A DNA stretch of 64,000 bases from an uncultured bacterium (GTDB lineage Bacteria > Armatimonadota > Abditibacteriia > Abditibacteriales > Abditibacteriaceae): contig CAWJLW010000006.1 of assembly GCA_963843795.1 (NCBI GenBank), positions 2,864,375 through 2,928,374 on the forward strand, read 5' to 3'. The translations under genes and the position numbers were made by a program. This document shows, in pieces, positions 1 to 41,319 of this stretch. How positions within the stretch are numbered: the stretch's first letter is position 1; each line of letters begins with the position of its first letter. The notes under the pieces are model-generated. The model had not been told where the DNA came from. It worked only from the letters and a program-made list of their open reading frames with translations, and ran no database searches.

Positions 1-760
1 CGCCCAAGGGCGTCGAGCAACCGGCTTGCAACGCTTCCATGCAGGCGCGTTCGGTTTCGACACAAAAGCGCGCGCTTTCATTTTCCAACCCTGCAAGTAC
101 TTGCAGCACATTTTGATCGTCGCAGCGCGCTTCCAAAGCCAGCGCGCCCTGTCCGGGCGCGGGCACGAAATTTTGGCAATTGAAATCAAAATGCTGATGT
201 TGCGATAAATCAATGCCAAGCCGGTTCAAGCCCGCGCGCGCCAGCAGAATCGCATCGAAACTTTCATCCAATTTGCGTAATCGAGTGTCGATGTTGCCAC
301 GCACAGAAGAAACTTTTAAGTCGGGGCGCTGATATTTCAATTGTGCCGCGCGGCGCAAACTCGAAGTGCCTACGCGCGCACTGTGCGGCAATTGCGACCA
401 TACAGTTTCGTTTTCCCGATCGTCCAAATCGCGGCGCAAAATGCAAGCATCGGCAGGATTTTCGCGACCGGGCACGCACGCCAGACACAAATTTTCGGGG
501 AAAAGCGGTGGCAAATCTTTCAGGGAATGGACGGCAAAATCAATCTCGCCACTTAAAAGCGCTTGCTCGATTTCTAGCGTAAAAACGCCTTTTCCGCCAA
601 TTTCCGGCAGGGGTTGTCCTTGCTGCTTATCGCCCGTGGTGCGAATGATAATTTCTTCGATCCGCAAATCGGGTGTCAACTGTTCCAATGCGCGTGCGGT
701 CTGCCGAGCCTGCGCCAAAGCCAAGGCGCTGCCCCGTGTACCCATTTTCAAGATCGTCAT
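1..760 (-). CDS. hemC: Hydroxymethylbilane synthase (porphobilinogen deaminase), 3' end runs off window
   Basis: Read by hand on the minus strand from ATG at 760: MTILKMGTRGSALALAQ...GGKGVFTLEIEQALL..DFAVHSLKD..VGTSSLRR..VRGNIDTRLRKL..FVPAPGQGALALE..AGCSTPLG. These are HemC motifs. Not in the ORF track because it has no stop inside the window. Confidence 0.96.
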   Translation of the reverse strand, partial: MTILKMGTRGSALALAQARQTARALEQLTPDLRIEEIIIRTTGDKQQGQPLPEIGGKGVFTLEIEQALLSGEIDFAVHSLKDLPPLFPENLCLACVPGRENPADACILRRDLDDRENETVWSQLPHSARVGTSSLRRAAQLKYQRPDLKVSSVRGNIDTRLRKLDESFDAILLARAGLNRLGIDLSQHQHFDFNCQNFVPAPGQGALALEARCDDQNVLQVLAGLENESARFCVETERACMEALQAGCSTPLG

Positions 761-1639: not shown

Positions 1640-3048
1640 CGTGCCCCCTCGGGAGCAACCGATTGAGTTGCGCTGCTTTCTTTTTCGTTTTTGGGCGCGC
1701 TGCAAGTACTTGCAGCGCTGTTTGGGAAGGTTTCTAAATCGAAAGCGCGGCGCAAAGCTTCGACATCTTCGGGCTGCGAATCGGCGGCTTCGCGCAAATG
1801 ACGCAGCGGTGCGTGCATCAATTTTCCGCTCACCGAACGCGCCAGAGCGCGCACGATTTGCTGATCGCGCGGTGACAAATGTTGCAACTGTGCTAGCGCG
1901 ATCTCGGTTTCGCGGTCGCGCACTTCATTGGCGTGACGCGCCAAAGCTGACAAAACTGGCTGCGCGCCGCGACCTTTTATCCACTGTGCCCAGCTACGCG
2001 CTTCTTCACCGATAATTTCCTGCACCAAAGCCAATTCGCGCGCGCGCTGCTGCTGATTGGCTGCGACCACGCCCTGCAAATCGTCGATGTCATACAAATA
2101 CACATTGTCCTGTTGATGTGACAAAGGGTCGATGTCGCGAGGAACGGCAATATCAATCAAAAACAGTGGGCGCTGATGGCGCAAGCGCATAGCCTGCTCG
2201 ACTTGGGTTGCCGTTAACACCAGATGCGGCGCGCGCGTGGACGAAATCACAATATCAGCTTTCACTAACTGTTCTGGAAATTCTTCCCACGTCACGGCCT
2301 GAGCCTGCGCGTTGGGGATGCCTTCAAGAAAATTAAGTTCGCTATCGTTCTGACGCGCATCACTGTCAGAAAACAAACGCGCCAATTCCTGCGCGCGCTG
2401 ATAAGTGCGATTGGCGACCAGAATGCGGCGCGCGCCCGAAGCCACCAGATGTTGTGCCGTCAGCGCCGACATTTTGCCTGCGCCCAAAATCAAAACCGTA
2501 TGACCATTCAGCGGGCCAAAAATTTGGCGCGCTAATTCGACTGCCGCCGAACCAACATTCAATGCGCCGCGCCCAATGGCGGTTTCGGTGCGCGCGCGTT
2601 TACCGCATGCGATAGCGCGACGCAGCAGTTCGTCCATTTCCGCGCCCAGCGCGCCGTGTTCGCGTGCCACCGCCAGAGTCGCTTTCACTTGTCCTAAGAT
2701 TTCGCTTTCGCCCAACACCAAAGAATCAATGCCACTCGCGACGGCGAACAAATGCTGCACCGCGTCATCGTCTTGCGCGCGATAAAAATGACTTTCAATT
2801 TCGAGCGTTTCGTTCTGTGTCCAGCCGCCAATTTGCGGAAGTAATTTGTGCAGTTGGTCGGGAAAATTGGCCGGCGCCTGAAGATAAATTTCGGCGCGAT
2901 TGCAGGTCGAGAGAATCGCCGCTTGTTGGGCGCCATTAGCACGCAGCAAACGTAGTGCTTCGGCTAAACGCGAGGGCGAAAACGCCATGCGCTCGCGCAC
3001 CTCAACCGGCGCGGTTTTGTGATTCAATCCCAGCAAAAATAACGGCAT
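1636..3048 (-). CDS. hemA: Glutamyl-tRNA reductase
   Basis: GLNHKTAPVEVRE, LSTCNRAEIY, SGIDSLVLGESEILGQVK, GAGKM, DIAVPRDI motifs. Confidence 0.97.
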   Translation of the reverse strand: MPLFLLGLNHKTAPVEVRERMAFSPSRLAEALRLLRANGAQQAAILSTCNRAEIYLQAPANFPDQLHKLLPQIGGWTQNETLEIESHFYRAQDDDAVQHLFAVASGIDSLVLGESEILGQVKATLAVAREHGALGAEMDELLRRAIACGKRARTETAIGRGALNVGSAAVELARQIFGPLNGHTVLILGAGKMSALTAQHLVASGARRILVANRTYQRAQELARLFSDSDARQNDSELNFLEGIPNAQAQAVTWEEFPEQLVKADIVISSTRAPHLVLTATQVEQAMRLRHQRPLFLIDIAVPRDIDPLSHQQDNVYLYDIDDLQGVVAANQQQRARELALVQEIIGEEARSWAQWIKGRGAQPVLSALARHANEVRDRETEIALAQLQHLSPRDQQIVRALARSVSGKLMHAPLRHLREAADSQPEDVEALRRAFDLETFPNSAASTCSAPKNEKESSATQSVAPEGAR

Positions 3049-3126: not shown

Positions 3127-3768
3127 TCAACTGCTCGAACCATTCACCATTTTTTCAAATTCGGCGCGCGCGCTTTCCACTTCGCCCGCTTTGAGTAAGG
3201 ACAAAATATCGCTTTCCAGAATCGCGCGCCACAATTCGGCGCGCTGCTTTTGTTCACCGAGCATTTTCATTTCGGCGCGCTGTTCGCTCATCCAGCGCAA
3301 CAAGTGAGCGTATTCCGCGCCAATTACGCCTTCGATTTCAGCTTTCAAATGACGCGAAAGCGCTGGGCTACCACCCGAACTTGAAATGCCTATGCAAATT
3401 TCGCCACGACGAATTGTGGCCGCACCGTGAAAATCGCTTTCTGCCGAATCGTCAGCCAAGTTGCACCACGCGCCGTTGAGTTTCGCTTCGCGCGCGATTT
3501 TGGCATTGACGGAGCGCGCATCGGTGCAGGCGAAAACCAGATCAAAATCGCTGGTGTCACCGGCAGCAAAAGCGCGCTGCAAGTACTTGCAGGCGCGTTT
3601 TTCGATGAGCGAGGCCAAAGCTTCACACAGTTCGGGTGCGATAATTGTCACAGTGGCGTGACATTCCACGAGCGAAGCGGCTTTGCGTGCCGCGACCGCA
3701 CCGCCTCCGACAATCAGGCACGCACGACCGCTCACATCTAAAGCGACCGGCAACAGTTTTCGGCTCAT
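3127..3768 (-). CDS. sirC: Precorrin-2 dehydrogenase/sirohydrochlorin ferrochelatase (SirC/CysG N-terminal domain)
   Basis: LIVGGGAVAARK, CNLADD, IGISSSGGSPALS motifs. Confidence 0.9.
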   Translation of the reverse strand: MSRKLLPVALDVSGRACLIVGGGAVAARKAASLVECHATVTIIAPELCEALASLIEKRACKYLQRAFAAGDTSDFDLVFACTDARSVNAKIAREAKLNGAWCNLADDSAESDFHGAATIRRGEICIGISSSGGSPALSRHLKAEIEGVIGAEYAHLLRWMSEQRAEMKMLGEQKQRAELWRAILESDILSLLKAGEVESARAEFEKMVNGSSS

Positions 3769-3781
3769 GAGAATTGCCAGC

Positions 3782-3919
3782 TTACAATTCTTCGCGCGGC
3801 ACATCGCGCAGCGTTTTTTCCAATTGTCGCGTCGCGCGATCCAAACGGAACAGGTAAATCCACACACCGAACCATGTCAAAAGCGAGACGATTAAAGCGA
3901 ATAAAGTTTCTTTGCCCAT
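3782..3919 (-). CDS. ccmD: CcmD-family small membrane protein
   Basis: 45 aa with one TM (WFGVWIYLFRLDR) and a charged tail, directly after ccmC. Confidence 0.7.
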   Translation of the reverse strand: MGKETLFALIVSLLTWFGVWIYLFRLDRATRQLEKTLRDVPREEL

Positions 3920-5443: not shown

Positions 5444-6088
5444 TTAAGGCGTTTTCAAAATTGGCACGCTTTCCACATCAATCGTGCAATCGCACAGTTC
5501 GATTTCGCGTGCGTCGTTGGTTGCCAACAAAGCCACGCCGCGCGTGCGCTGCTCATCCAGAGCGCGCCGCAAAAGCACGCGACCGGCTTCATCCAAATTC
5601 GCGCCCGGCTCGTCCAACAATAAAATCGGCGGCGCGTGCAAAGTTGCAATACACAAAGCCAAGCGCGCGCGCAAACCACTCGACAAATCGCCCGCCAAAT
5701 CGTTCCAACGCGCACCCAGTTCCCATTCTTCCAAGCGCGCGCGCAAATGCGCTTCTTCATCACTCTTGCAAGTACTTGCAGGGCGCATTTGCGACCAGAA
5801 CTGCAAATTTTCGCCGCACGTCAATTCGCGATACAGCGGAACATCGGGCGCGCACAAACCACACAGCGCGCGCAATTCTTCCCCCGCGATTTCCGAAGCA
5901 TCTTCGCGCCACACAATTCTTCCGGCATCAAGAGTTGTCAAAGCAGCGACAGCGCGCAACAAAGTACTTTTGCCGCTGCCGTTGCGCCCGATAATCGCCG
6001 CGACGCTGCCTGTTTCAATTTCAAAATCTAAGCGCCGCAAAACCACGCGCGCACCATAACGTTTACCGACTTTGCTGCCAATTAACAT
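5444..6088 (-). CDS. ccmA: Haem exporter ABC ATPase
   Basis: GRNGSGKSTLL, LSSG signature, LLLDEPGANLD, next to ccmB. Start taken at ATG 6088. Confidence 0.88.
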   Translation of the reverse strand: MLIGSKVGKRYGARVVLRRLDFEIETGSVAAIIGRNGSGKSTLLRAVAALTTLDAGRIVWREDASEIAGEELRALCGLCAPDVPLYRELTCGENLQFWSQMRPASTCKSDEEAHLRARLEEWELGARWNDLAGDLSSGLRARLALCIATLHAPPILLLDEPGANLDEAGRVLLRRALDEQRTRGVALLATNDAREIELCDCTIDVESVPILKTP

Positions 6089-6222
6089 CGCAGAGAGGAC
6101 AGACAGACAAAAATAAGAGGAAAAGAGAAAAAATTTTGCGTACTGAAGGTGCGGCTTCTTCGCTGCAAGTACTTGCAGCGAAGATTTGTGTTTCTTCCTT
6201 TCAAACCTTCTTTTTCCCTCTT

Positions 6223-7467
6223 TTATTTTTCGCGGCTCACCACGTAATCTGCGATGTCGCACAGCATCTGGCGCGCGGGACAATTTTCGAAAATGTCCAG
6301 TTCGGCTTTGGCTCGACCCGCATATTCCAAGGCGCTGTGCAAACACGAGGCGATGGCGTCGCTCGAACGTAGTGCTTCCAAAACGCGCTCGACATCGACG
6401 TCTTCAATCGGGCTTTTTCCGATCAGTTCGCATAAAATCGCGCGCTCATCGGCGCTTGAAGTTTGCATTGCGCGCAGCATCGGCAGCGTAATGATGCCTT
6501 CGCGAATATCGTTGCCGACCGGTTTGCCAATGCGCTTTTTGCTGGAAACCACGTCGAACACATCATCGACAATTTGAAACGCGATGCCGATATAATGACC
6601 GTAACGTGCCAGAGCCTCGACCTGCTGATCGGTGGCTCCAACGGCAAGGGCGCCGATGCGGCACGAGCATTCAGTGAGGGCCGAAGTTTTCAAGGCGACG
6701 ATTTCCAGATAATCGCTTTCCTCCATTTCCAGTTCGCCGCGCTTCTGCGCTTCCAGCAGTTCGCCCGCGCACATTTGTGCCGTCGCTTGCGCAAGCGGGT
6801 TCATCAAATCATAAAAGCCGCGCTGCGAAGCGATGAGAAAAACTTGCGCGAACAGGTAGTCGCCCACCAGAACGCTCATGCCGTTGCCCCAAACGAGATT
6901 AGCAGCGGGCTTGCCGCGTCGCACTTCGGCGCTATCGACCACATCATCATGAAGCAATGTCGTCGTGTGGGTGAGTTCAACAGCGACCGCAGCAGCCAGC
7001 ACTTTTTCGGGCAATTGCCCTCTGCGCACATGATCATCGCACAATTGCGCCGCCAAAACCGTTAAGGCCGGACGCAAACGCTTGCCGCCCGCGCCCAGAG
7101 TGTGCGAGGCGACATCGGCCACGGCTTTGATTGAAGCCGAAACCATGCGCTCGATTTCGATTTCGACTTGCTTGAGTTGCGGCTTCAAGCCTTGCAGCGA
7201 AGCCGAAATATCGATGTCGCGCCACAATTCCTCAGTCGCGATGCTTTCCTGCGCGACTGAAGAACCATTGTAGCTGGCTCCGTTGCGACGAACATTCTGC
7301 GCGCGTGTGGCTTCGTGCGAACGAGCGTCGTCGTGCGGGCGCACCATGCGTTCGGTCAGGTCGTTGGCCAGTTCATCGGTCATCGTTTCCAGAGCCGTTT
7401 CGACTTGGCCGACCGTGCTTTCAGGCGCAATTTCCGTGGCTTGTGGGGCGTAAATTTGCTGTTCCAT
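6223..7467 (-). CDS. Polyprenyl diphosphate synthase (IspB/HepT family)
   Basis: GGKRLRP, LLHDDVVD..VRRG, GDYLF, AFQIVDD, GKPVGNDIREG. Confidence 0.93.
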   Translation of the reverse strand: MEQQIYAPQATEIAPESTVGQVETALETMTDELANDLTERMVRPHDDARSHEATRAQNVRRNGASYNGSSVAQESIATEELWRDIDISASLQGLKPQLKQVEIEIERMVSASIKAVADVASHTLGAGGKRLRPALTVLAAQLCDDHVRRGQLPEKVLAAAVAVELTHTTTLLHDDVVDSAEVRRGKPAANLVWGNGMSVLVGDYLFAQVFLIASQRGFYDLMNPLAQATAQMCAGELLEAQKRGELEMEESDYLEIVALKTSALTECSCRIGALAVGATDQQVEALARYGHYIGIAFQIVDDVFDVVSSKKRIGKPVGNDIREGIITLPMLRAMQTSSADERAILCELIGKSPIEDVDVERVLEALRSSDAIASCLHSALEYAGRAKAELDIFENCPARQMLCDIADYVVSREK

Positions 7468-8354: not shown

Positions 8355-8459
8355 GTGTAGCACTGAGACGTGTGAGATTTGCTGCGAGCCTCGCTTTCAT
8401 TGATGAGCATTTCTAATGGGTTTTGCCATCGCGCCGTTAGCAGAAAGCGCGCGGATTTC

Positions 8460-12596: not shown

Positions 12597-12630
12597 AAAA
12601 GCGCGCTGCAAGTACTTGCAGCGCGCTTTT
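12597..12630. terminator. 34-bp palindrome-core hairpin, terminator-like
   Basis: AAAAGCGCGCTGCAAGTACTTGCAGCGCGCTTTT, identical to 13224-13257 and 56702-56735. Confidence 0.75.
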
Positions 12631-13257: not shown

Positions 13258-15744
13258 TTACTCATCGACGGTGTCGCGACCCAGCGACCAAACGACGCCC
13301 GCCGCGACCAGATAAATTAAAGCGCCAAACGATAAGGTTTGCGAGAAGCCAAAAGCTTTTCCGCTCATCGCAGCGCACAGCGAACCGACCACGCTCGCCA
13401 CGCCATTCAAGCCCCAAACCAGAGGCACGCTTCCGGCGCGACGACGCGAAAACAAACGCATTCCAGCGGGGAACGGTGTGCCCAATAAAAAGCCCAGTGG
13501 AAGCAACAAAACGGCGGTCAGGGCGCAGCGCGCGGCAAGGGATAAAAGCGGCCAACCGCCGGTAAGAAGCGAAATCAGCGAGGTGCTGAGTGCACCAATC
13601 GTTGCCACACCCAGCGCGCATAGAGCGGCGTGATTGGCCAAGCGTTTCCGCTCGAAACGCTGCGAAAACCACGCGCCTATTCCACCGCCGAGCAAAATCG
13701 AGAATAAAATCACCGCCAGCGCTAAAGTCGGATAACCCAGCGGCAGAATCAGTTTTTGCACGAGGGGAATTTCGACCAGCATGAAACCGATGCCCAGCAA
13801 AACGAAATAAGCAATCCAGCCCACATCGCTCCCGTTCAAGCGCGTATTATCTTCACTCCAAGTACTTGCAGCAGCGCTTTCATCATCCGAGGGTTCGGTT
13901 GCGGGCGCGAGATTTGGATCAGCGAAATGCACGCTTTCATCCGTAAAATTCGACGCAGTTTTAGGCGCGGAAGTGAACAAACCAAACAGCGAAAGCGCGA
14001 TGGCGACAGCTCCGGCGAAACCGGCGATCTGCCAGAAAATTGGCAGCGATTCCAAGCTGATGTCCAGCACGAAAGGGCGATCGTCCGGGCAGGCGGAAAT
14101 ATCCAACGGTGGCTGATAGGTGCGAAATTGATTGACGAAACCCGCTAAATCCAATGTGCCCGCGCCTAACTGTGGATACGGGCCCACAATCGACAAGGCC
14201 GCTTCGCCCGGCACCCACACTGCGGACAGTCGGCGCGCATTCGCGCCTCGGTTCAGGCGCTTGGCCTGAGCGGCACCAATCGGCGTTTTCTGCACCACAA
14301 GGGCGTAAACATACGGACCGGGACGCGGGTCGGAGGCAATCGCGATATGTTGCATCGCTTTGGTATTGTCGATGCCGAGCGTGGCAAGTACTTGCAACCA
14401 CGTTGAAGTGAAACGCGCCAGCAGAATCGGGTTATCCATCACAATCGTCATCTGCCCGTCCGGCTTCAGCAAATTCCAATAATCGGTAAACGCATCGGTC
14501 GTGTAAATATACGATTCCAAAAGCGCCATGCCCTGTCCTGCGGTCGCGGTTTTGGTGAGAGCGGAAAACACCATGTCGTAACGGTCGCCGCGCGCCAGAG
14601 CCTCACGCGCGAAGGCGCGCCCATCGGCGGTTTGCACCCGAACTTCGGGGCGCTGATAGATGCCGCCGTTGTACTTGCGATAATCGCGCATGATATCGAG
14701 AATCGACGGGTTGAGTTCCGCGCCATCGAAACGCTTCGCGCCCCAGCGCAACGCCAAAAGCGCGTCCAATCCACCGCCCGGCCCAATCGAAAACACGCGC
14801 GAATCCCGACGCTGTAAAGGCGCGCTGGCGAAGCACCAATCTGACAAAGCGAAGTCATTGGTAATGCGCGGAATCGTCGATAATTCGCCGTCCCAGCGAC
14901 TCATGTTAGTTGGCACGTTGCCGTTGGTGTAAAGCAAATAGCTGCCCGGCGAAACCGGATCATCGACGATATCCGTGCGTGCGAAAGCGTTCCAGCGCGT
15001 TTGAACAATTTTCGAAGTGTGGCCCGGCGTGCCCAGTTCCGTGAATAACGGCTGCGTGACGCCTTTGTCGGCCAAAGTCAAACCCTCGGCATCGGGCTTG
15101 GGCGGGAGCGCATCGAGCTGCAAAACGCCAGTGCCCGACGCGACTAATCCAAAAACGAACAACGCCGCGCACGGCCACATTTCAATCGGTTTCCGCGCCA
15201 GTAAAACCACGGGCAAGGCACCCAAAATTGCCGCAAAAACAATCGCTAGAGGCGCGCTCATCAGTTGCAGCACGACGACCGAAAGCGCCGCCGCGCACGC
15301 CGCGCCCGCCAAATCCCACGCGTAAACGCGCCCGCTCCATTGCGGATATAAGGCGAACGCTTCGGCCAACCACGCGCCGCCAAACGAAAACGGCACCAGA
15401 ACGGCGACTGCCAGCATCCAATAGGCATCGGGCGCAACCGGAAACACGCCGCGCAAAAGCACTAACAGCGAGAGCACAACGCTCAAGCCGAACCATGCCG
15501 ACAACCGGCTTAAATCGATAGTTTTGCGCGCGCGCAGCCAGTGCATCGCATAGCCGCCGATGCCCAATCCGCACAAGGCGACCGAAATAATCAGAAACGC
15601 GAAATGATAGCGCAAAAGCGTTCCAAACAAGCGCGAAAGCGCGATTTCCAGAACCAGAATGGCGGCGGCAACCGCAGCGACGCTGCTTAAAAAGGCGCGC
15701 GAAGGAGAAGAAACCGGAAGTGAAGACGACGGAGAAAATTCCAC
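13258..15744 (-). CDS. Membrane protein with central SAM-dependent (spermidine synthase-like) domain
   Basis: N- and C-terminal TM bundles (LEIALSR, GIGFMLVEI, GTPFPAG, WGLNGVASV) around IGPGGGLD / AELNP / ADGRAF. Confidence 0.8.
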   Translation of the reverse strand: MEFSPSSSLPVSSPSRAFLSSVAAVAAAILVLEIALSRLFGTLLRYHFAFLIISVALCGLGIGGYAMHWLRARKTIDLSRLSAWFGLSVVLSLLVLLRGVFPVAPDAYWMLAVAVLVPFSFGGAWLAEAFALYPQWSGRVYAWDLAGAACAAALSVVVLQLMSAPLAIVFAAILGALPVVLLARKPIEMWPCAALFVFGLVASGTGVLQLDALPPKPDAEGLTLADKGVTQPLFTELGTPGHTSKIVQTRWNAFARTDIVDDPVSPGSYLLYTNGNVPTNMSRWDGELSTIPRITNDFALSDWCFASAPLQRRDSRVFSIGPGGGLDALLALRWGAKRFDGAELNPSILDIMRDYRKYNGGIYQRPEVRVQTADGRAFAREALARGDRYDMVFSALTKTATAGQGMALLESYIYTTDAFTDYWNLLKPDGQMTIVMDNPILLARFTSTWLQVLATLGIDNTKAMQHIAIASDPRPGPYVYALVVQKTPIGAAQAKRLNRGANARRLSAVWVPGEAALSIVGPYPQLGAGTLDLAGFVNQFRTYQPPLDISACPDDRPFVLDISLESLPIFWQIAGFAGAVAIALSLFGLFTSAPKTASNFTDESVHFADPNLAPATEPSDDESAAASTWSEDNTRLNGSDVGWIAYFVLLGIGFMLVEIPLVQKLILPLGYPTLALAVILFSILLGGGIGAWFSQRFERKRLANHAALCALGVATIGALSTSLISLLTGGWPLLSLAARCALTAVLLLPLGFLLGTPFPAGMRLFSRRRAGSVPLVWGLNGVASVVGSLCAAMSGKAFGFSQTLSFGALIYLVAAGVVWSLGRDTVDE

Positions 15745-19088: not shown

Positions 19089-19829
19089 TTAGTCGCTTCC
19101 ATCAACAGTCCATAAGCTGCGTTTGGTCATCGCTTCGAGCGAAAGCCATTTGGTGTGACCATCGGCGAAAACCACGTTGCAGCCGTTGTTGTGCAGCGGA
19201 TTGACACCGTATTTCAGCAAACCTTCTTCGCCGACGAAAGGCGGCTGCTGTGTGCCCGGATTCACAAAGTAGCCATCGCCATCCAACGCCAAAATCGTAC
19301 TTGAAGGACGGCGATAGCGCATTTCATGAATCGGCGGTCGACCGATTTCGCCCATTATTGGATTACCATCTTCCTTTACGATAAAAGAACTGGGCGGAGC
19401 GTTGGGAGCTGGAGGAACGTTGAGATCGTAGGAACCATCCCAACGATTGGACGCTTCTTCGGGCGGGCATCCGGTGCGATATTCACCGTTTTCAGCGTTG
19501 GGGCACTCAAAAACTTCTGTCGCTTTCACATACGGATAAATCGGCTCCACCCACAGCGAACAGTTTTTCGTTTCAGACGTGGAATAGTTGTGTAGGGCAG
19601 GATAAAAACCGGCGTTGTCGCGCACATACTGCGTGATGCCCTGCCCAATTTGGCGCAGGTTACTGGCACAGGTCGTACGGCGTCCGGCTTCGCGCACGCT
19701 CGACATTACGGGCAACAGAATCGCCGCCAAAATTGCGATGATCGCCAGCACTACTAAAATTTCAATCAGCGTGAAAGCGCGCCGCACTGTTCGAGTGCGA
19801 CGCGCTATTGCTGCGCAATGGCAAAGCAT
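19089..19829 (-). CDS. Prepilin-type N-terminal/DUF1559 protein with H-X9-DG motif
   Basis: [45 protein letters not shown]. Confidence 0.9.
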
Positions 19830-27039: not shown

Positions 27040-27714
27040 ATGCACGATTATCCTCATTCTCACGCGCACACCGCGTGGAAAACACCCGAAATTTCGCGCG
27101 AACGGCCGTTGCGTGTGGGCATCGGCGGGCCGGTTGGCAGCGGCAAAACCGCGCTCGTCGAAATGCTTTGCAAGTACTTGCGCGACAAATATTCGCTCGC
27201 GGTTGTGACCAACGATATTTACACGCGCGAGGACGCCGAAATTCTCACTCGCGCCGGTGCTCTGCCCGCGCAGCGCATCGTCGGCGTTGAAACTGGCGGC
27301 TGCCCGCACACCGCGATTCGCGAAGATGCGTCGATGAACTTGGAAGCGATTGACGCGCTGGAAATTCAATTTCCCGATTTAGATTGCATCTTCGTTGAAA
27401 GCGGCGGCGATAATCTGGCCGCTGCGTTTTCACCCGAATTGGTGGATCGTTTTATTTATGTGATTGATGTCGCGCAGGGCGAAAAAATCCCGCGCAAAGG
27501 CGGCCCCGGCATTCGTCTGAGCGATTTGCTTTTGATTAACAAAACCGATTTGGCACCGCACGTCGGGGCGGATTTGGGCGTGATGGAGCGCGACACGCGT
27601 TCGATGCGCGGCGACCGTTTGTTTATTTTCTCCAATCTGCGCGCGGGAACGGGCGTGCCCGAAATCGCGCACTGGCTTGAACATCAATTGAATGACGATT
27701 TGCATGGCGAATGA
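27040..27714 (+). CDS. ureG: Urease accessory GTPase UreG
   Basis: [35 protein letters not shown]. Confidence 0.97.
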
Positions 27715-28510
27715 CAGCGCTAAAATCGCATTGGGCAAGTCGTCGCACTTGCGCGCGCACCTGCAAATACTTGCTGAAAAAACCACGTTGGCGCGCGTCG
27801 AACAAAGTGCGCCCTTGAAACTGGCACGCGCGTTTCCGCAGCGCGACGGCAGCTTGAATTTGTGCATCATGGACGCGTCACCCGGACTTCTCAGCGGCGA
27901 CGACTACTGTTTCGACTGGCATTTCGCGCCCGACACGCGCGCGCACATCACGACGCAAGGCTTCACGCGCGTGCATCCCTCGCGCGGCCAAACTTCCACG
28001 CAAAACACGCATTTGAGTTTGGAAGCGGGCGCGCGCTGCAAGTACTTGCCATTGCCGACGATTCCATTCGCGGGCGCGGATTTTCGGAGCGAAACCACGA
28101 TTGAATTGAACGCAAATTCGGCGTTATTCTGGGCCGAAACTTTGAGCGCGGGTCGCATTGCGCGCGGCGAAACGTGGCAGTTCGAGCGCGTGGTTTCGGC
28201 TGTGACCGTGAAGCGCGAAAATCAAATTGTGTGGTGCAATCGCAATCATATTGAGCCGCAAAAACGCGCCGCAAGTACTTGCGGCGCGTGGGAAAACTGG
28301 ACGCACGCAGCGACCTTTGGCGCATTTACGGCGCACAACGAGAATCAAACCGAGATGGTAAATACCGCGCGAGAAATCTTGCAACAAGCTGGCTGGCACG
28401 CTGGCGTGAGTGCTTTAGAATATGGCATAGCTGGCGTCGTTCTGGGCACGCGCGGCGAAGCGATGCACGACACGCTCACACAGCTCGCGCAAGTACTTGC
28501 GGAGTTTTGA
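27704..28510 (+). CDS. ureD: Urease accessory protein UreD/UreH
   Basis: [36 protein letters not shown]. Confidence 0.9.
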
Positions 28511-34050: not shown

Positions 34051-34955
34051 TTATTTCGATGACAGGTTGCGCGTTGCGTAGCGCGAAGCCAAGCTCAGCA
34101 CAAAGACAATACCGACCAAAACCAGCGCGCCGCCCCACGCCAGGGCGTTCCAGCGATCATCGGCGGCGGTAGCGAAATTAAAAATCGTGACCGGCAGTGA
34201 AGCCATCGGTTCATTGGGATTCAAGCTGTAATAATTGTTGCCCAGAGCGGTGAACAACAAGGGCGCAGTTTCGCCCGCGATGCGCGCAATTGCCAGCAAA
34301 ATGCCGGTGATCACGCCGCCGCGCGCCGAACTCAAGACGATTTTGAACATCGTGCTGCCAGCGCGTCGCGCCCAGTGCCAGCGAAGCATCGCGCAACGAA
34401 ACCGGCACCAAACGCACGATTTCTTCGGTCGTGCGCATCACGGTCGGAATCATCATCAAGCCCAGCGCAAGGCCGCCAGCATAGGCCGAAAAGTGGGGCG
34501 GATTTAAGCGGCAAAACCGCAATTGCATACACGAAAATGCCGATCACAATCGAAGGCACGCCGTTCAGTACATCGGCGGAGAAACGAATCCACCAGCCCA
34601 ATTTGTTGTTACCGAACTCGGCCAGATAAATGCCGCCCAGAACGCCAAAAGGCAAGCCAATTAAGGAAGCCAAGCCAATCAGCATCAAAGTTCCGGCGAT
34701 GGAATGTTTCATGCCGCCGCCGTCGGACATCGGCGGCGGTTGCACCTGCGTAAAAAAGCCCGTGCCCAGCACTTTAACGCCCTGAATCGTGACGTAATAC
34801 AAAACCAGCGCGAGCGGAATAATTGCCAGCGTAGTAGCCGTAACCGCACCGATCCACATCAGAGCATTAGCCAATTTACGACGCGGCGCGAGGCCCGTGT
34901 TGGGCGCGACGAGCGGGCGCGTCGGGACGGGAGTGGGAGAAGCAGCGACGTTCAT
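34051..34955 (-). CDS. pstA: Phosphate ABC permease PstA, two apparent frameshifts (~34495, ~34355)
   Basis: Pieces GGIYLAEF/GVPSIVIG, MRTTEE..ALGATRW and ARIAGETAPLL lie in three successive ORFs. Confidence 0.9.
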
Positions 34956-35981
34956 TCGCGGGAGGCTCCTTTCATGCTGCGCGCCATGTTCCACAACAAC
35001 AGGCGCGCCAGTGCGTTGACAATAATCGTGATCGCGAACAAGACGAGCGCGACGTACATCAGCGCGGGCAACTGCGGCCCGCTAGCTTCGGCGAACTGGT
35101 TGGCCAAAGCGCTCGCCAAGGTATTGCCGGGCGCGAACAGCGACCACGAGGCTTCATTGCCGTTGCCGATAACCATCGTGACCGCCATGGTTTCGCCCAA
35201 AGCGCGCGCCAAGTCCTAAGATAATCGCGCCCATAATGCCCGAACGCGCATAACGTAAAATCGGGCCACTAATCGCTTCCCAGTGCGTCGCGCCCAAGCC
35301 GAAGGCGGCTTCGCGCTGCGATGGCGGCACGGCCTTAATCACTTCGCGCGAAACGGCAGTGATAAACGGCAAAATCATGATGGCCAAAATCAGCGCGCCC
35401 GCCATCATGGAAAGTCCAGTTGCCGGACCATTGAAAAATGGCAGCCAGCCGAAATGTGCGCCCAGCCACACTTGGAACGGCCGCAAAACGGGAATCAAGA
35501 CGAAAATTCCCCACAAACCGTAAACCACAGAGGGCACAGCGGCCAGCAATTCGACCAAAAACGCGACTGGCGTGCGCATCCATTTGGGCGCAAGTTCGGT
35601 TAGAAATATCGCCGTGCCAATCGCAACAGGAACCGCCAGCAAAAGCGCCAAAAAGGACGACACCAATGTGCCAAAGATGAAAGGCCACGCGCCGTAAACA
35701 TCGTTGACCGGATCCCACGTCGAGCGCGTGACAAAGCCCAATCCAAACTGGCGAATCGAAGGAATTGAATCGCGGAAAAGCTGGTAAAAAATCAGCGCGC
35801 ACACGACGAGCACGCTGAGCGCGAAGCCCATCGTGCCCCAGTGAAAAATGCCGTCGCCAAGATTGTTGGTGCGACCACCCGACAAAGACGGGCGTTCGCC
35901 AGGACGATTGGGATCGCCAAGGGGATTATCGCCAGTCGGCGGGTGCGGAATGGTTAAAGGAGCAGCGGGATCAACGGCCAT
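34952..35981 (-). CDS. pstC: Phosphate ABC permease PstC, apparent frameshift at ~35210
   Basis: ELLAAVPSVVYGLWG, then RALGETMAVTMVIGN in the next frame. One extra G at CTT-G-GCG-CGC. Confidence 0.92.
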
Positions 35982-37296: not shown

Positions 37297-37340
37297 AAAA
37301 CGCGCTGCAAGTACTTGCGCAAGTACTTGCAGCGCGTTTT
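37297..37340. repeat. 44-bp palindrome made of two tandem cores
   Basis: AAAACGCGCT-GCAAGTACTTGC-GCAAGTACTTGC-AGCGCGTTTT. Confidence 0.95.
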
Positions 37341-41272: not shown

Positions 41273-41319
41273 AATGCTTTAGGCGCGGCAAGTACTTGCA
41301 GTACTTGCAACGCACGTTT

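Follow-up and report, generated by a model that had tools for sequence, protein, structure and literature searches.

The 64,000-nucleotide stretch analysed here (the window) belongs to the genome of an uncultured bacterium of the Abditibacteriaceae (Armatimonadota) and is strewn with a perfect 12-base palindrome, GCAAGTACTTGC. Being palindromic, this word reads identically on either strand; it is free of stop codons in every frame and is translated, depending on the frame, as ASTC, xKYL or QVLA. Copies located within genes replace ancestral sequence of the same length at weakly conserved positions, they make use of rare codons and they distort the proteome. Related species carry words with the same AGTACT core and different outer triplets, which are rewritten at shared positions such that QVLA in one genus faces RVLE or RVLD in another. 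It is tentatively proposed, with slightly less than even confidence, that GCAAGTACTTGC is a lineage-specific tag that was substituted into genes in three frames and is kept by a predicted DNA-reading protein serving uptake or self-recognition, in the manner of DNA uptake sequences (DUS) and uptake signal sequences (USS); the step from tag to uptake is one that we infer.

Forty-nine exact copies were counted in the window, against a mean of 0.00 and a maximum of 0 in 100 shuffles. In the 4.30-Mb, 11-contig assembly that contains the window (G000), the word occurs 2,567 times versus 0.25 expected from base composition, an over-representation of about 10,000-fold. All 36 one-off variants sum to 506 copies and consist chiefly of transitions at positions 4/9 and 1/12. 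Along the main contig C6, copies are spaced more evenly than a Poisson process would place them, with a coefficient of variation of 0.89 and 13 gaps longer than 7 kb versus 26.7 expected. Genes (3,242 in G000) were called with a crude caller of our own based on dicodon scores and longest starts. The first tenth of the called open reading frames (ORFs) is inflated by over-long starts and the coding share was estimated from the flat part of the distribution, which gives about 30% truly coding and about 70% intergenic copies.

An earlier note on this DNA had proposed that the sites arise in place by substitution, and the alignments support it. Orthologues of the urease accessory proteins were gathered within the family (11 genomes for UreG and 10 for UreD), and all four exact sites (4/4) fell in ungapped columns. 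At the UreG site, the 11 orthologues read LCKQL, LCKRM and similar; among those of UreD, the one left out of the comparison at the last site terminates before it. The note had also compared the site with a Klebsiella UreG segment of the same length; this segment matches PDB 5xkt_A, which aligns without gap over 194 residues and reads LCKAMRD. In parallel, 1.2 Mb of G009, a species of the family's genus g6, was compared with G000 through 558 reciprocal best pairs (median identity 56.7%), in which 232 copies lay in paired genes and 139 within the aligned part. Of these, 115 of 139 were gap-free to within one residue of the motif, and 17% of sites were gapped versus 9.8% of control windows (n=74,747). 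In the same way, alignments to three metagenome relatives, which were found with a 20-mer and in which each locus was thereby selected for one exact copy, were ungapped within 3 bases at 50/58, 37/43 and 12/14 sites (99/115 in total), and in many of the gapped cases the motif aligns to the motif and the gap adjoins it. When all relatives were pooled, 262 of 292 site-to-relative comparisons were gap-free across the 12 bases, so that insertion is at most a minor route; the excess of neighbouring indels described below, albeit real, is small. Consistent insertions of 4-5 amino acids at the motif, the result named in the note as contrary to substitution, were looked for in the alignments and were not found.

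The manner of substitution can be approached from the lineage-specific sites (n=53, ungapped over 36 bases on each side). The identity of the relative is 0.49-0.56 in the 12-mer block and 0.56-0.66 beside it, so that the block differs by one or two bases beyond background. This retained homology fits stepwise change from near-matches, and overwriting of unrelated sequence by a block was rejected since the relatives remain homologous over the 12 bases. Two simplifications were also discarded. G009 cannot serve as a motif-free outgroup because it has an AGTACT word of its own, although the gap test still holds, and the RVLE or RVLD found opposite QVLA cannot be taken as neutral ancestry, as these residues are G009's own dialect.

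Palindromes translated inside conserved proteins are also found in Rickettsia, whose palindromic elements lengthen the protein by inserting about 100-150 bases. It could be argued that the coding copies are likewise insertions of a tiny mobile element, either similar to these or a miniature inverted-repeat transposable element mobilised by a transposase associated with repetitive extragenic palindromic (REP) sequences. Indels beside sites are indeed in modest excess (24/128 versus 14.9 expected from controls matched on flank identity, p 0.012), a 12-base gap was seen in 1/16 gapped cases against the metagenome relatives, a single 4-aa gap was seen against G009 (PLQVLAG against K----GH), and adjacent tandem copies at a 12-base spacing occur 12 times on contig C6. 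On the contrary, about 90% of the comparisons keep their length unchanged, in agreement with the distinction from Rickettsia-type elements drawn in the earlier note, and the gaps that span the word in the metagenome relatives measure 15, 18 and 27 bases. Moreover, the 2,567 copies include 2,388 distinct 32-mers, another, G+C-rich hairpin repeat borders the sole Y1-transposase-like gene, and the regions devoid of the motif are those rich in insertion sequences. The insertion-element explanation is thus highly improbable and already largely refuted in this analysis.

The word has left a deep imprint on the proteome. Genome-wide, 785 internal coding copies comprise 470 QVLA, 169 KYL and 146 ASTC, the even split over frames being local to the window, and the 139 copies in BLAST-validated orthologue alignments comprise 83, 34 and 22, respectively. 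ASTC occurs 258 times in the G000 proteome versus 4.6 expected from composition, its scrambled peptides occurring 2-8 times each, and in 230 of the 258 cases the codons spell the exact word, versus 0.55 expected from codon usage. QVLA is found 688 times versus 38.8 expected, and QVL is spelled CAAGTACTT in 670 of 1,057 cases versus 4.6 expected, a spelling that includes the rare codons GTA (8%) and CTT (9%). Finally, KYL occurs 445 times versus 118 expected and 317 of these are spelled AAGTACTTG. Both the peptide enrichment and the codon choice, which the earlier note had suggested checking, are therefore very strongly biased to the motif. In the comparison with G009, amino-acid identity at sites is 0.29 versus 0.53 in controls, and sites are sparser (0.127 per kb) in genes whose identity to the G009 orthologue is 70% or more than in the others (0.27-0.33 per kb). 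Pressure at the DNA level can strongly reshape proteins, one tetrapeptide being here about 50-fold enriched by way of rare codons, and such an imprint is relevant to codon-usage models, gene prediction and the detection of foreign DNA in genomes of this kind.

None of 40 relatives has the exact word above chance level, their counts being 0-3 copies each. Another species of the same genus (G001, 63% complete) has 0 copies of GCAAGTACTTGC and 2,725 of AAGTACTT, and its own word, CAAAGTACTTTG, is found 129 times in 364 kb. When 401 genomes of the phylum were sampled, richness in AAGTACTT proved to be confined to G000 and G001. In the metagenome relatives, whose aligned codons agree with those of G000 at about 65% of nucleotides, the word is CAAGTACTTG, with looser ends and a density of about 1.1 per kb. 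A UreD-based search of metagenomes for related loci found no relative, a 16-mer scan of genome contigs returned at least 36 hits among the matches listed, all single and scattered with no relatives, and the 16-mer matched 6 contigs of IMG/VR once each, which is chance level.

Across the family, AGTACT is hyper-abundant in 6/27 genomes, namely G000, G001 and four of the six species of genus g6 (G009, G012, G015 and G019), in which 2,813-4,733 copies are found versus 236-1,045 for the reversed control. These four species have a hyper-abundant 12-mer palindrome of their own, TCGAGTACTCGA. In G009, it occurs 863 times in 1.2 Mb (G009:C1:1-1200000), with 321 one-off variants and no hairpin flanks, and the 265 of the 863 copies that fall in aligned ORF parts read SSTR (87), EYS (69) or RVL[ED] (109). 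On the contrary, AGTACT is far below the reversed control in genus g2 (1-126 versus 305-1,419), in genus g5 (1-15 versus 654-1,172) and in the single genome of family f2; the core is there 10- to 600-fold rarer (for example 1 versus 654 and 3 versus 548), which suggests restriction-type avoidance of the core that relatives amplify. At least 11 of the 18 AGTACT copies of one otherwise AGTACT-poor genome lie on a single 7-kb contig (G024:C98:1726-6897), which may be mis-binned or foreign, from an AGTACT-rich organism. Three g2 species (G007, G018 and G016) possess instead a non-palindromic word, AGCCACGSCG, that is equal on both strands (1116/1123, 971/1000 and 298/262 per strand versus about 40-50 for the control) and totals about 560-2,240 copies versus about 90. 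It looks like a classical uptake-sequence-type word; ten dispersed copies were seen in 20 kb of locus L346 (G007, L346-L348). In 60 kb of G014, of genus g5, no iterated word was found, this being too little sequence to exclude one.

Individual sites are conserved even between species with only 65% of nucleotides in common. The core 8-mer is kept at 26/54, 21/40 and 6/12 of the exact coding sites of G000 in the three metagenome relatives versus a background of 6.2-6.4%, and at 6/36 sites (17%) versus 7.6% in G001. Shared core positions number 32, 25 and 8 in the metagenome relatives and 10 in G001, for which independent placement predicts 0.01-0.04. Site patterns over several relatives nest as would be predicted by a tree, for only 42 sites with two or more relatives. 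G000 and G009 share 12 AGTACT positions versus 0.15 expected by independent placement; these 12, out of 169 ungapped sites, are however not above the 12% background for identical 6-mers, so that site conservation is not demonstrated at G009 depth. In 10 of the 12, GCA..TGC is paired with TCG..CGA (QVLA opposite RVLE/D), which indicates that the outer triplets were rewritten in place.

Most copies lie between genes, where they take a longer form. A copy is present in 62% of convergent spacers (n=430), 38% of tandem spacers (n=2,374) and 36.5% of divergent spacers (n=427), chiefly 10-40 bases past a stop codon. The flanks prolong the palindrome, with the consensus AAAGCGCGCT-word-AGCGCGCTTT, and the stems covary, complementarity being 0.50-0.60 versus 0.27-0.41 expected for independent flanks. 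For instance, the copy at 8457 has flanks that depart from the consensus and are yet complementary to each other. Folded as RNA, the long forms yield hairpins of about -25 kcal/mol (z about -5), in which a GUAC loop caps a stem of 15 bp and after which U runs follow, and six of the seven strongest terminator-like hairpins in 20 kb contain the word. Only these intergenic long forms have the G+C-rich hairpin and U run after a gene that define an intrinsic terminator. The 613 internal coding copies inspected show no flank complementarity and those of UreG and UreD fold no better than shuffles (UreG z +0.69). In addition, the A3 and T3 tracts located about 15 bases from the dyad match each other in strength on its two sides in one-directional spacers and are also present in divergent ones, which makes them part of a symmetric DNA element beyond a terminator tail.

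These observations could place the primary function at the RNA level, the word being the apex of intrinsic terminators and the coding copies mere by-products of template switching or short-patch conversion. The location past stop codons, the covariation, the folding energies and the share of strong hairpins all speak for it. Nevertheless, this explanation is improbable, as the coding copies are conserved at the nucleotide level although they neither have complementary flanks nor fold better than shuffles, a hairpin has no need of a fixed apex sequence, and the related word of G009 has no hairpin flanks at all. The A tracts match the T tracts in one-directional spacers and both occur in divergent ones, and the homology of relatives at the 12-mer block of lineage-specific sites fits stepwise change and not copied patches.

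To our knowledge, hyper-abundant short words are well studied in three groups only, the Neisseriaceae, the Pasteurellaceae and the cyanobacteria. The function of the cyanobacterial highly iterated palindrome HIP1 (GCGATCGC) is still debated after 30 years. A literature search for the 12-mer found no paper; among the matches listed for its 8- and 10-mer cores, only unrelated subjects appeared and none treats the cores as a genome-wide element, and a search combining palindromic overrepresented uptake sequences with Verrucomicrobia gave nothing on the present group. The closest known kinds are HIP1 and DNA uptake sequences. A passage of PMC13756078 (citing Robinson 1997, a title also in the reference list of PMC4390886) states that HIP1 shows no indels in alignments and is hence held to spread by substitution; it is described as conserved by selection between genomes, with variant words in some lineages, in part of PMC5861425, as tied to orphan methylases in part of PMC4390886 and, lately, as linked to transformation in parts of PMC13756078 and of bioRxiv 10.1101/2024.09.10.611283. 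Like HIP1, GCAAGTACTTGC is an exact short palindrome over-represented genome-wide by orders of magnitude, present in genes and spacers, spread by substitution without indels apart from the modest neighbouring excess, and conserved beyond background in the three metagenome relatives (not above background versus G009), with variant words in relatives. Unlike HIP1, which has 8 bases, it has 12 bases with an AGTACT core and belongs to another phylum, about 70% of its copies lie between genes at terminator-like hairpins, the two genomes searched (G000 and G001) yielded no cognate orphan methylase for it, and its core is actively avoided in sister genera.

GCAAGTACTTGC also has features in common with uptake sequences. 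In PMC2817400, uptake sequences are reported to double the tripeptides that they encode, to lie at poorly conserved residues and to be absent from genes without homologues in relatives, 34.5% of the DUS of N. meningitidis being within ORFs; a passage of PMC3630211 describes species-specific DUS dialects and a high frequency in terminators. In the same way, GCAAGTACTTGC occurs at about one copy per 1-2 kb, mostly between genes, with dialects in relatives, enrichment at terminator-like hairpins and absence from the mobile DNA of the genome, and its coding copies fall in all frames at poorly conserved residues and yield enriched peptides. The differences are that known uptake sequences need inverted pairs to form a hairpin, whereas a single copy of the palindromic GCAAGTACTTGC suffices, and that its peptide enrichment is far above the roughly two-fold reported. 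A non-palindromic word equal on both strands, which is typical of uptake sequences, is found here in the AGCCACGSCG of genus g2 and not in GCAAGTACTTGC. Nor is any uptake assay, receptor or competence phenotype known for this group. As for REP sequences and REPINs, which are strictly extragenic and both flank and depend on a gene for a REP-associated tyrosine transposase (RAYT), the intergenic copies resemble them as palindromes of 30-40 bases near gene ends in hundreds of copies; they differ in that about 30% of the copies of GCAAGTACTTGC are inside genes as the bare 12-mer (613-785 internal coding copies), that the flanks are diverse and that the RAYT-like gene goes with another repeat. The residues added as alignment gaps by Rickettsia palindromic elements have no consistent counterpart here. 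Altogether, GCAAGTACTTGC is distinguished from HIP1 and uptake sequences by its 12 bases, its fixed core with variable triplets, the avoidance of this core, its role as a single-copy hairpin apex, its stronger imprint and its phylum.

A protein able to read or drive the word was sought in the genomes. Neither G000 (92% complete) nor G001 yielded a Vsr, a C5 methylase or a Dam-type methylase. The single PF01555 methylase of G000 is a DPPY enzyme of N6-adenine type whose closest solved relatives are M.RsrI, M.MboIIA and CcrM; it is not specific to tagged genomes, its orthologues (56-75% identity) being present in 25/26 family genomes, AGTACT-rich and AGTACT-poor alike. The HsdM of G000 belongs to a type I system within a motif-free island, and the RE_ScaI family had no match in any genome, control genomes included. 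A weak RAYT-like Y1-transposase ORF was located at G000:C6:752058-752288 (L271 1351-1797), between copies of a G+C-rich hairpin repeat (GGGCGGGTC.GAGACCCGCGCCC) different from the word, and it was rejected as driver since it is tied to that other repeat. Among uptake genes, G000 has ComEC, a ComEA-type HHH_3 protein and DprA.

Under the proposed tag, double-stranded DNA would be under pressure from a symmetric, dimeric reader, the specificity of which would drift between species. New copies would arise stepwise from near-matches by biased fixation, be it molecular drive (preferential uptake and recombination) or selection, and intergenic copies would have been co-opted in this lineage as the apex of bidirectional terminators. 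Several points weigh against this proposal. No reader protein was found, and ComEC, HHH_3 and DprA do not discriminate because they are equally present in relatives without this word. Known uptake sequences are, as far as we know, not palindromes, and the literature consulted describes no transformation in this group. The strong avoidance of AGTACT in sister genera resembles restriction-modification biology more than uptake, and most copies stand between genes as hairpins whose stems truly covary, a state that a terminator role alone could maintain. The excess of indels beside sites and the background-level sharing with G009 also count against it, the gene calls rest on a crude caller, and the metagenome relatives form three populations by record prefix and G+C only.

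The chief rival, possible although rather unlikely, is a methylation-linked ratchet of the HIP1 type, in which an orphan methyltransferase marks AGTACT, methyl-directed or very-short-patch-like repair ratchets near-matches to the word, and selection for the organisation of the chromosome or nucleoid keeps the copies. As in the accounts of HIP1 given in parts of PMC5861425 and PMC4390886, the word is palindromic, substitution-spread and conserved between genomes with alternate words in relatives; its core is a classical restriction-type hexamer, hyper-abundant or strongly avoided inside one family, its spacing is evener than random, and the G009 word, without hairpin flanks and with almost a third of its exact copies in aligned ORF parts, is distributed as HIP1 is. 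This model is nevertheless ill served by the methylases described above, which are either missing (Vsr, C5 and Dam types), shared with AGTACT-poor genomes (PF01555) or confined to a motif-free island (HsdM), and the non-palindromic, strand-symmetric g2 word misfits a palindrome-specific methylase. A lesser chance is given to another function at the DNA level unrelated to uptake, such as that of an abundant symmetric binder, for instance a nucleoid-structuring one, or a self-mark for defence or anti-restriction. The exact 12-bp dyad with phased A/T tracts in all spacer types, the sharpness of the word, the core avoidance in sister genera and the presence of the same word in plasmid- or phage-like contigs would suit such a function, but no candidate protein was found, the thousands of sites within genes occupy permissive and not fixed positions, for which drive is a better fit than site-by-site function, and turnover is high, as seen from the low retention of the core in G001.

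A broader form of the tag proposal, which is a speculative possibility that we hold to be rather improbable, is that the whole family runs an evolvable password made of the AGTACT core and species-specific triplets, with a fast-evolving dimeric reader gating uptake or recombination to kin. If this were true, species would rewrite thousands of sites and their encoded peptides (QVLA to RVLE) upon drift, lineages using other words would purge AGTACT, and resident plasmids or phages would copy the password of their host. Such a system would also place uptake sequences outside Proteobacteria and be the first to use a word both palindromic and modular. In any case, a single family here offers a natural experiment in which the core is hyper-abundant with three or more flank dialects, avoided in sister genera or replaced by a non-palindromic word. 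This within-family contrast makes the reader gene findable by phyletic profiling, and could separate drive, selection and methylation models.

Foreign DNA differs in its content of the word. Two copy-free stretches of 26 kb (G000:C6:56010-82495 and G000:C6:517680-543429) contain Mutator, IS4/5, IS110 and IS3-type transposases, ParA- and ParB-like genes, a type I restriction system, an ArdC-like fragment and an HNH gene, and are probably recently acquired mobile DNA. Conversely, the metagenome contigs L181 (12 kb), L194, L172, L161 and L205 (50-57% G+C) carry the exact G000 word at 1.2-1.4 per kb, encode D5_N/DUF5906 (D5-type) and Toprim primases and are almost devoid of homologues in G000; their source may be a plasmid or phage carrying the word of its host. 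Motif density is 0.63 per kb on contig C6 and lower on the small contigs C3 (0.07), C11 (0.18) and C4 (0.24), which may be mobile elements or mis-binned DNA. Within the window, two exact copies stand head to tail at 37307-37330 (GCAAGTACTTGCGCAAGTACTTGC) and partial duplications of the word are seen at 41288 and 52973; two sets of public-run DNA contigs from one study cover the region at a low and patchy level, and where they join one motif copy to another the repeat seems to have misled the assembly.

The sites of the window are collected in the table. The crude caller placed 20 of the 49 copies in genes, 1 on an edge and 28 between genes. The earlier count of 17 intragenic copies (5 QVLA, 6 KYL and 6 ASTC) was essentially right, because curation by domain limits leaves 16 firm ones (5, 5 and 6) together with five that depend on the choice of start codon. 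Its description of ureD, in which the word is written in all three frames next to a near-copy, agrees with the sequence.

Table. Copies of the word and the genes that carry them, in coordinates of the window.
Feature	Position	Strand	Remarks
Firm QVLA copies	93, 14384, 28489, 46519, 61765		
Firm KYL copies	3579, 27170, 28038, 29758, 53250		
Firm ASTC copies	1702, 5768, 25565, 28271, 55024, 60698		
Start-codon-dependent copies (five)	3090, 16912, 32933, 58659, 63139		
HemC	2-760	-	PF01379
Exact 12-mer in HemC, VLQVLAGL	93..104		Syntenic relative L202 TRQALAAL, no gap
Exact 12-mer in HemA C-terminal tail, frame ASTC	1702..1713		
SirC/CysG N-terminal type protein	3127-3867	-	
Exact 12-mer in SirC-type protein, RACKYLQRAF	3579..3590		
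ABC ATPase (CcmA-like)	5444-6346	-	PF00005 at aa 102-246
Exact 12-mer in CcmA-like ABC ATPase, frame ASTC	5768..5779		Frame derived from coordinates
Intergenic copy, non-consensus yet complementary flanks (CAATTGTGTG...CACACAATTA)	8457..8494		Fold -19.1 kcal/mol, z -4.7
Intergenic long form, 34-base perfect palindrome AAAAGCGCGCT-12mer-AGCGCGCTTTT	12597..12630		Terminator-like in both directions; 15-bp stem, GUAC loop, -25.4 kcal/mol, z -5.6
Intergenic long form, downstream of msrA and of convergent gene 13258-15744	13224..13257		Fold -25.8 kcal/mol, z -5.0
Exact 12-mer in 828-aa protein (13258-15744, -), frame QVLA	14384..14395		
ureG, urease accessory GTPase	27040..27714	+	TIGR00101, E 3.6e-96; gapless vs PDB 5xkt_A and 4hi0_E
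Exact 12-mer in UreG, xGC AAG TAC TTG C = CKYL (LCKYLR)	27170..27181		
ureD, urease accessory protein	27692..28510	+	PF01774, E 1.7e-45
One-mismatch copy GCAAATACTTGC in UreD, LQIL	27763..27774		N-terminal alignment too poor to judge gaps
Exact 12-mer in UreD, frame CKYL	28038..28049		Ungapped vs 10 orthologues reading LEYxP or LEWFP
Exact 12-mer in UreD, frame ASTC	28271..28282		Ungapped vs 10 orthologues
Exact 12-mer in UreD, frame QVLA, stop 3 codons on	28489..28500		Ungapped vs 9/10 orthologues

The syntenic metagenome locus L202 gives a closer view of several sites. The earlier note took the HemC and SirC sites to be in register, which stands for the motif itself, ungapped against L202 in both; the SirC-type copy is common to L202 in identical letters (CKYLQRA), with a 6-base (2-aa) gap directly upstream of it. 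The HemA site is ungapped against L202 (PSSA), with a 9-base gap upstream, and at the 14384 site L202 carries CAAGTACTTG at the same position (WLQVLG). A second site in the same minus-strand gene (13258-15744) has the core in frame ASTW in G000, while the L202 core is one base off, in frame QVLA, beside a 6-base indel. Elsewhere in the window, pstA (34051-34994) appears as two overlapping minus-strand ORFs (34332-34994 and 34051-34389), and public-run contigs have one base missing at each of 34354 and 34509; the split is a frameshift, an assembly error or strain variation. Finally, the domain matches include an HX9DG prepilin, and prepilin-type genes are present (19089-19829).

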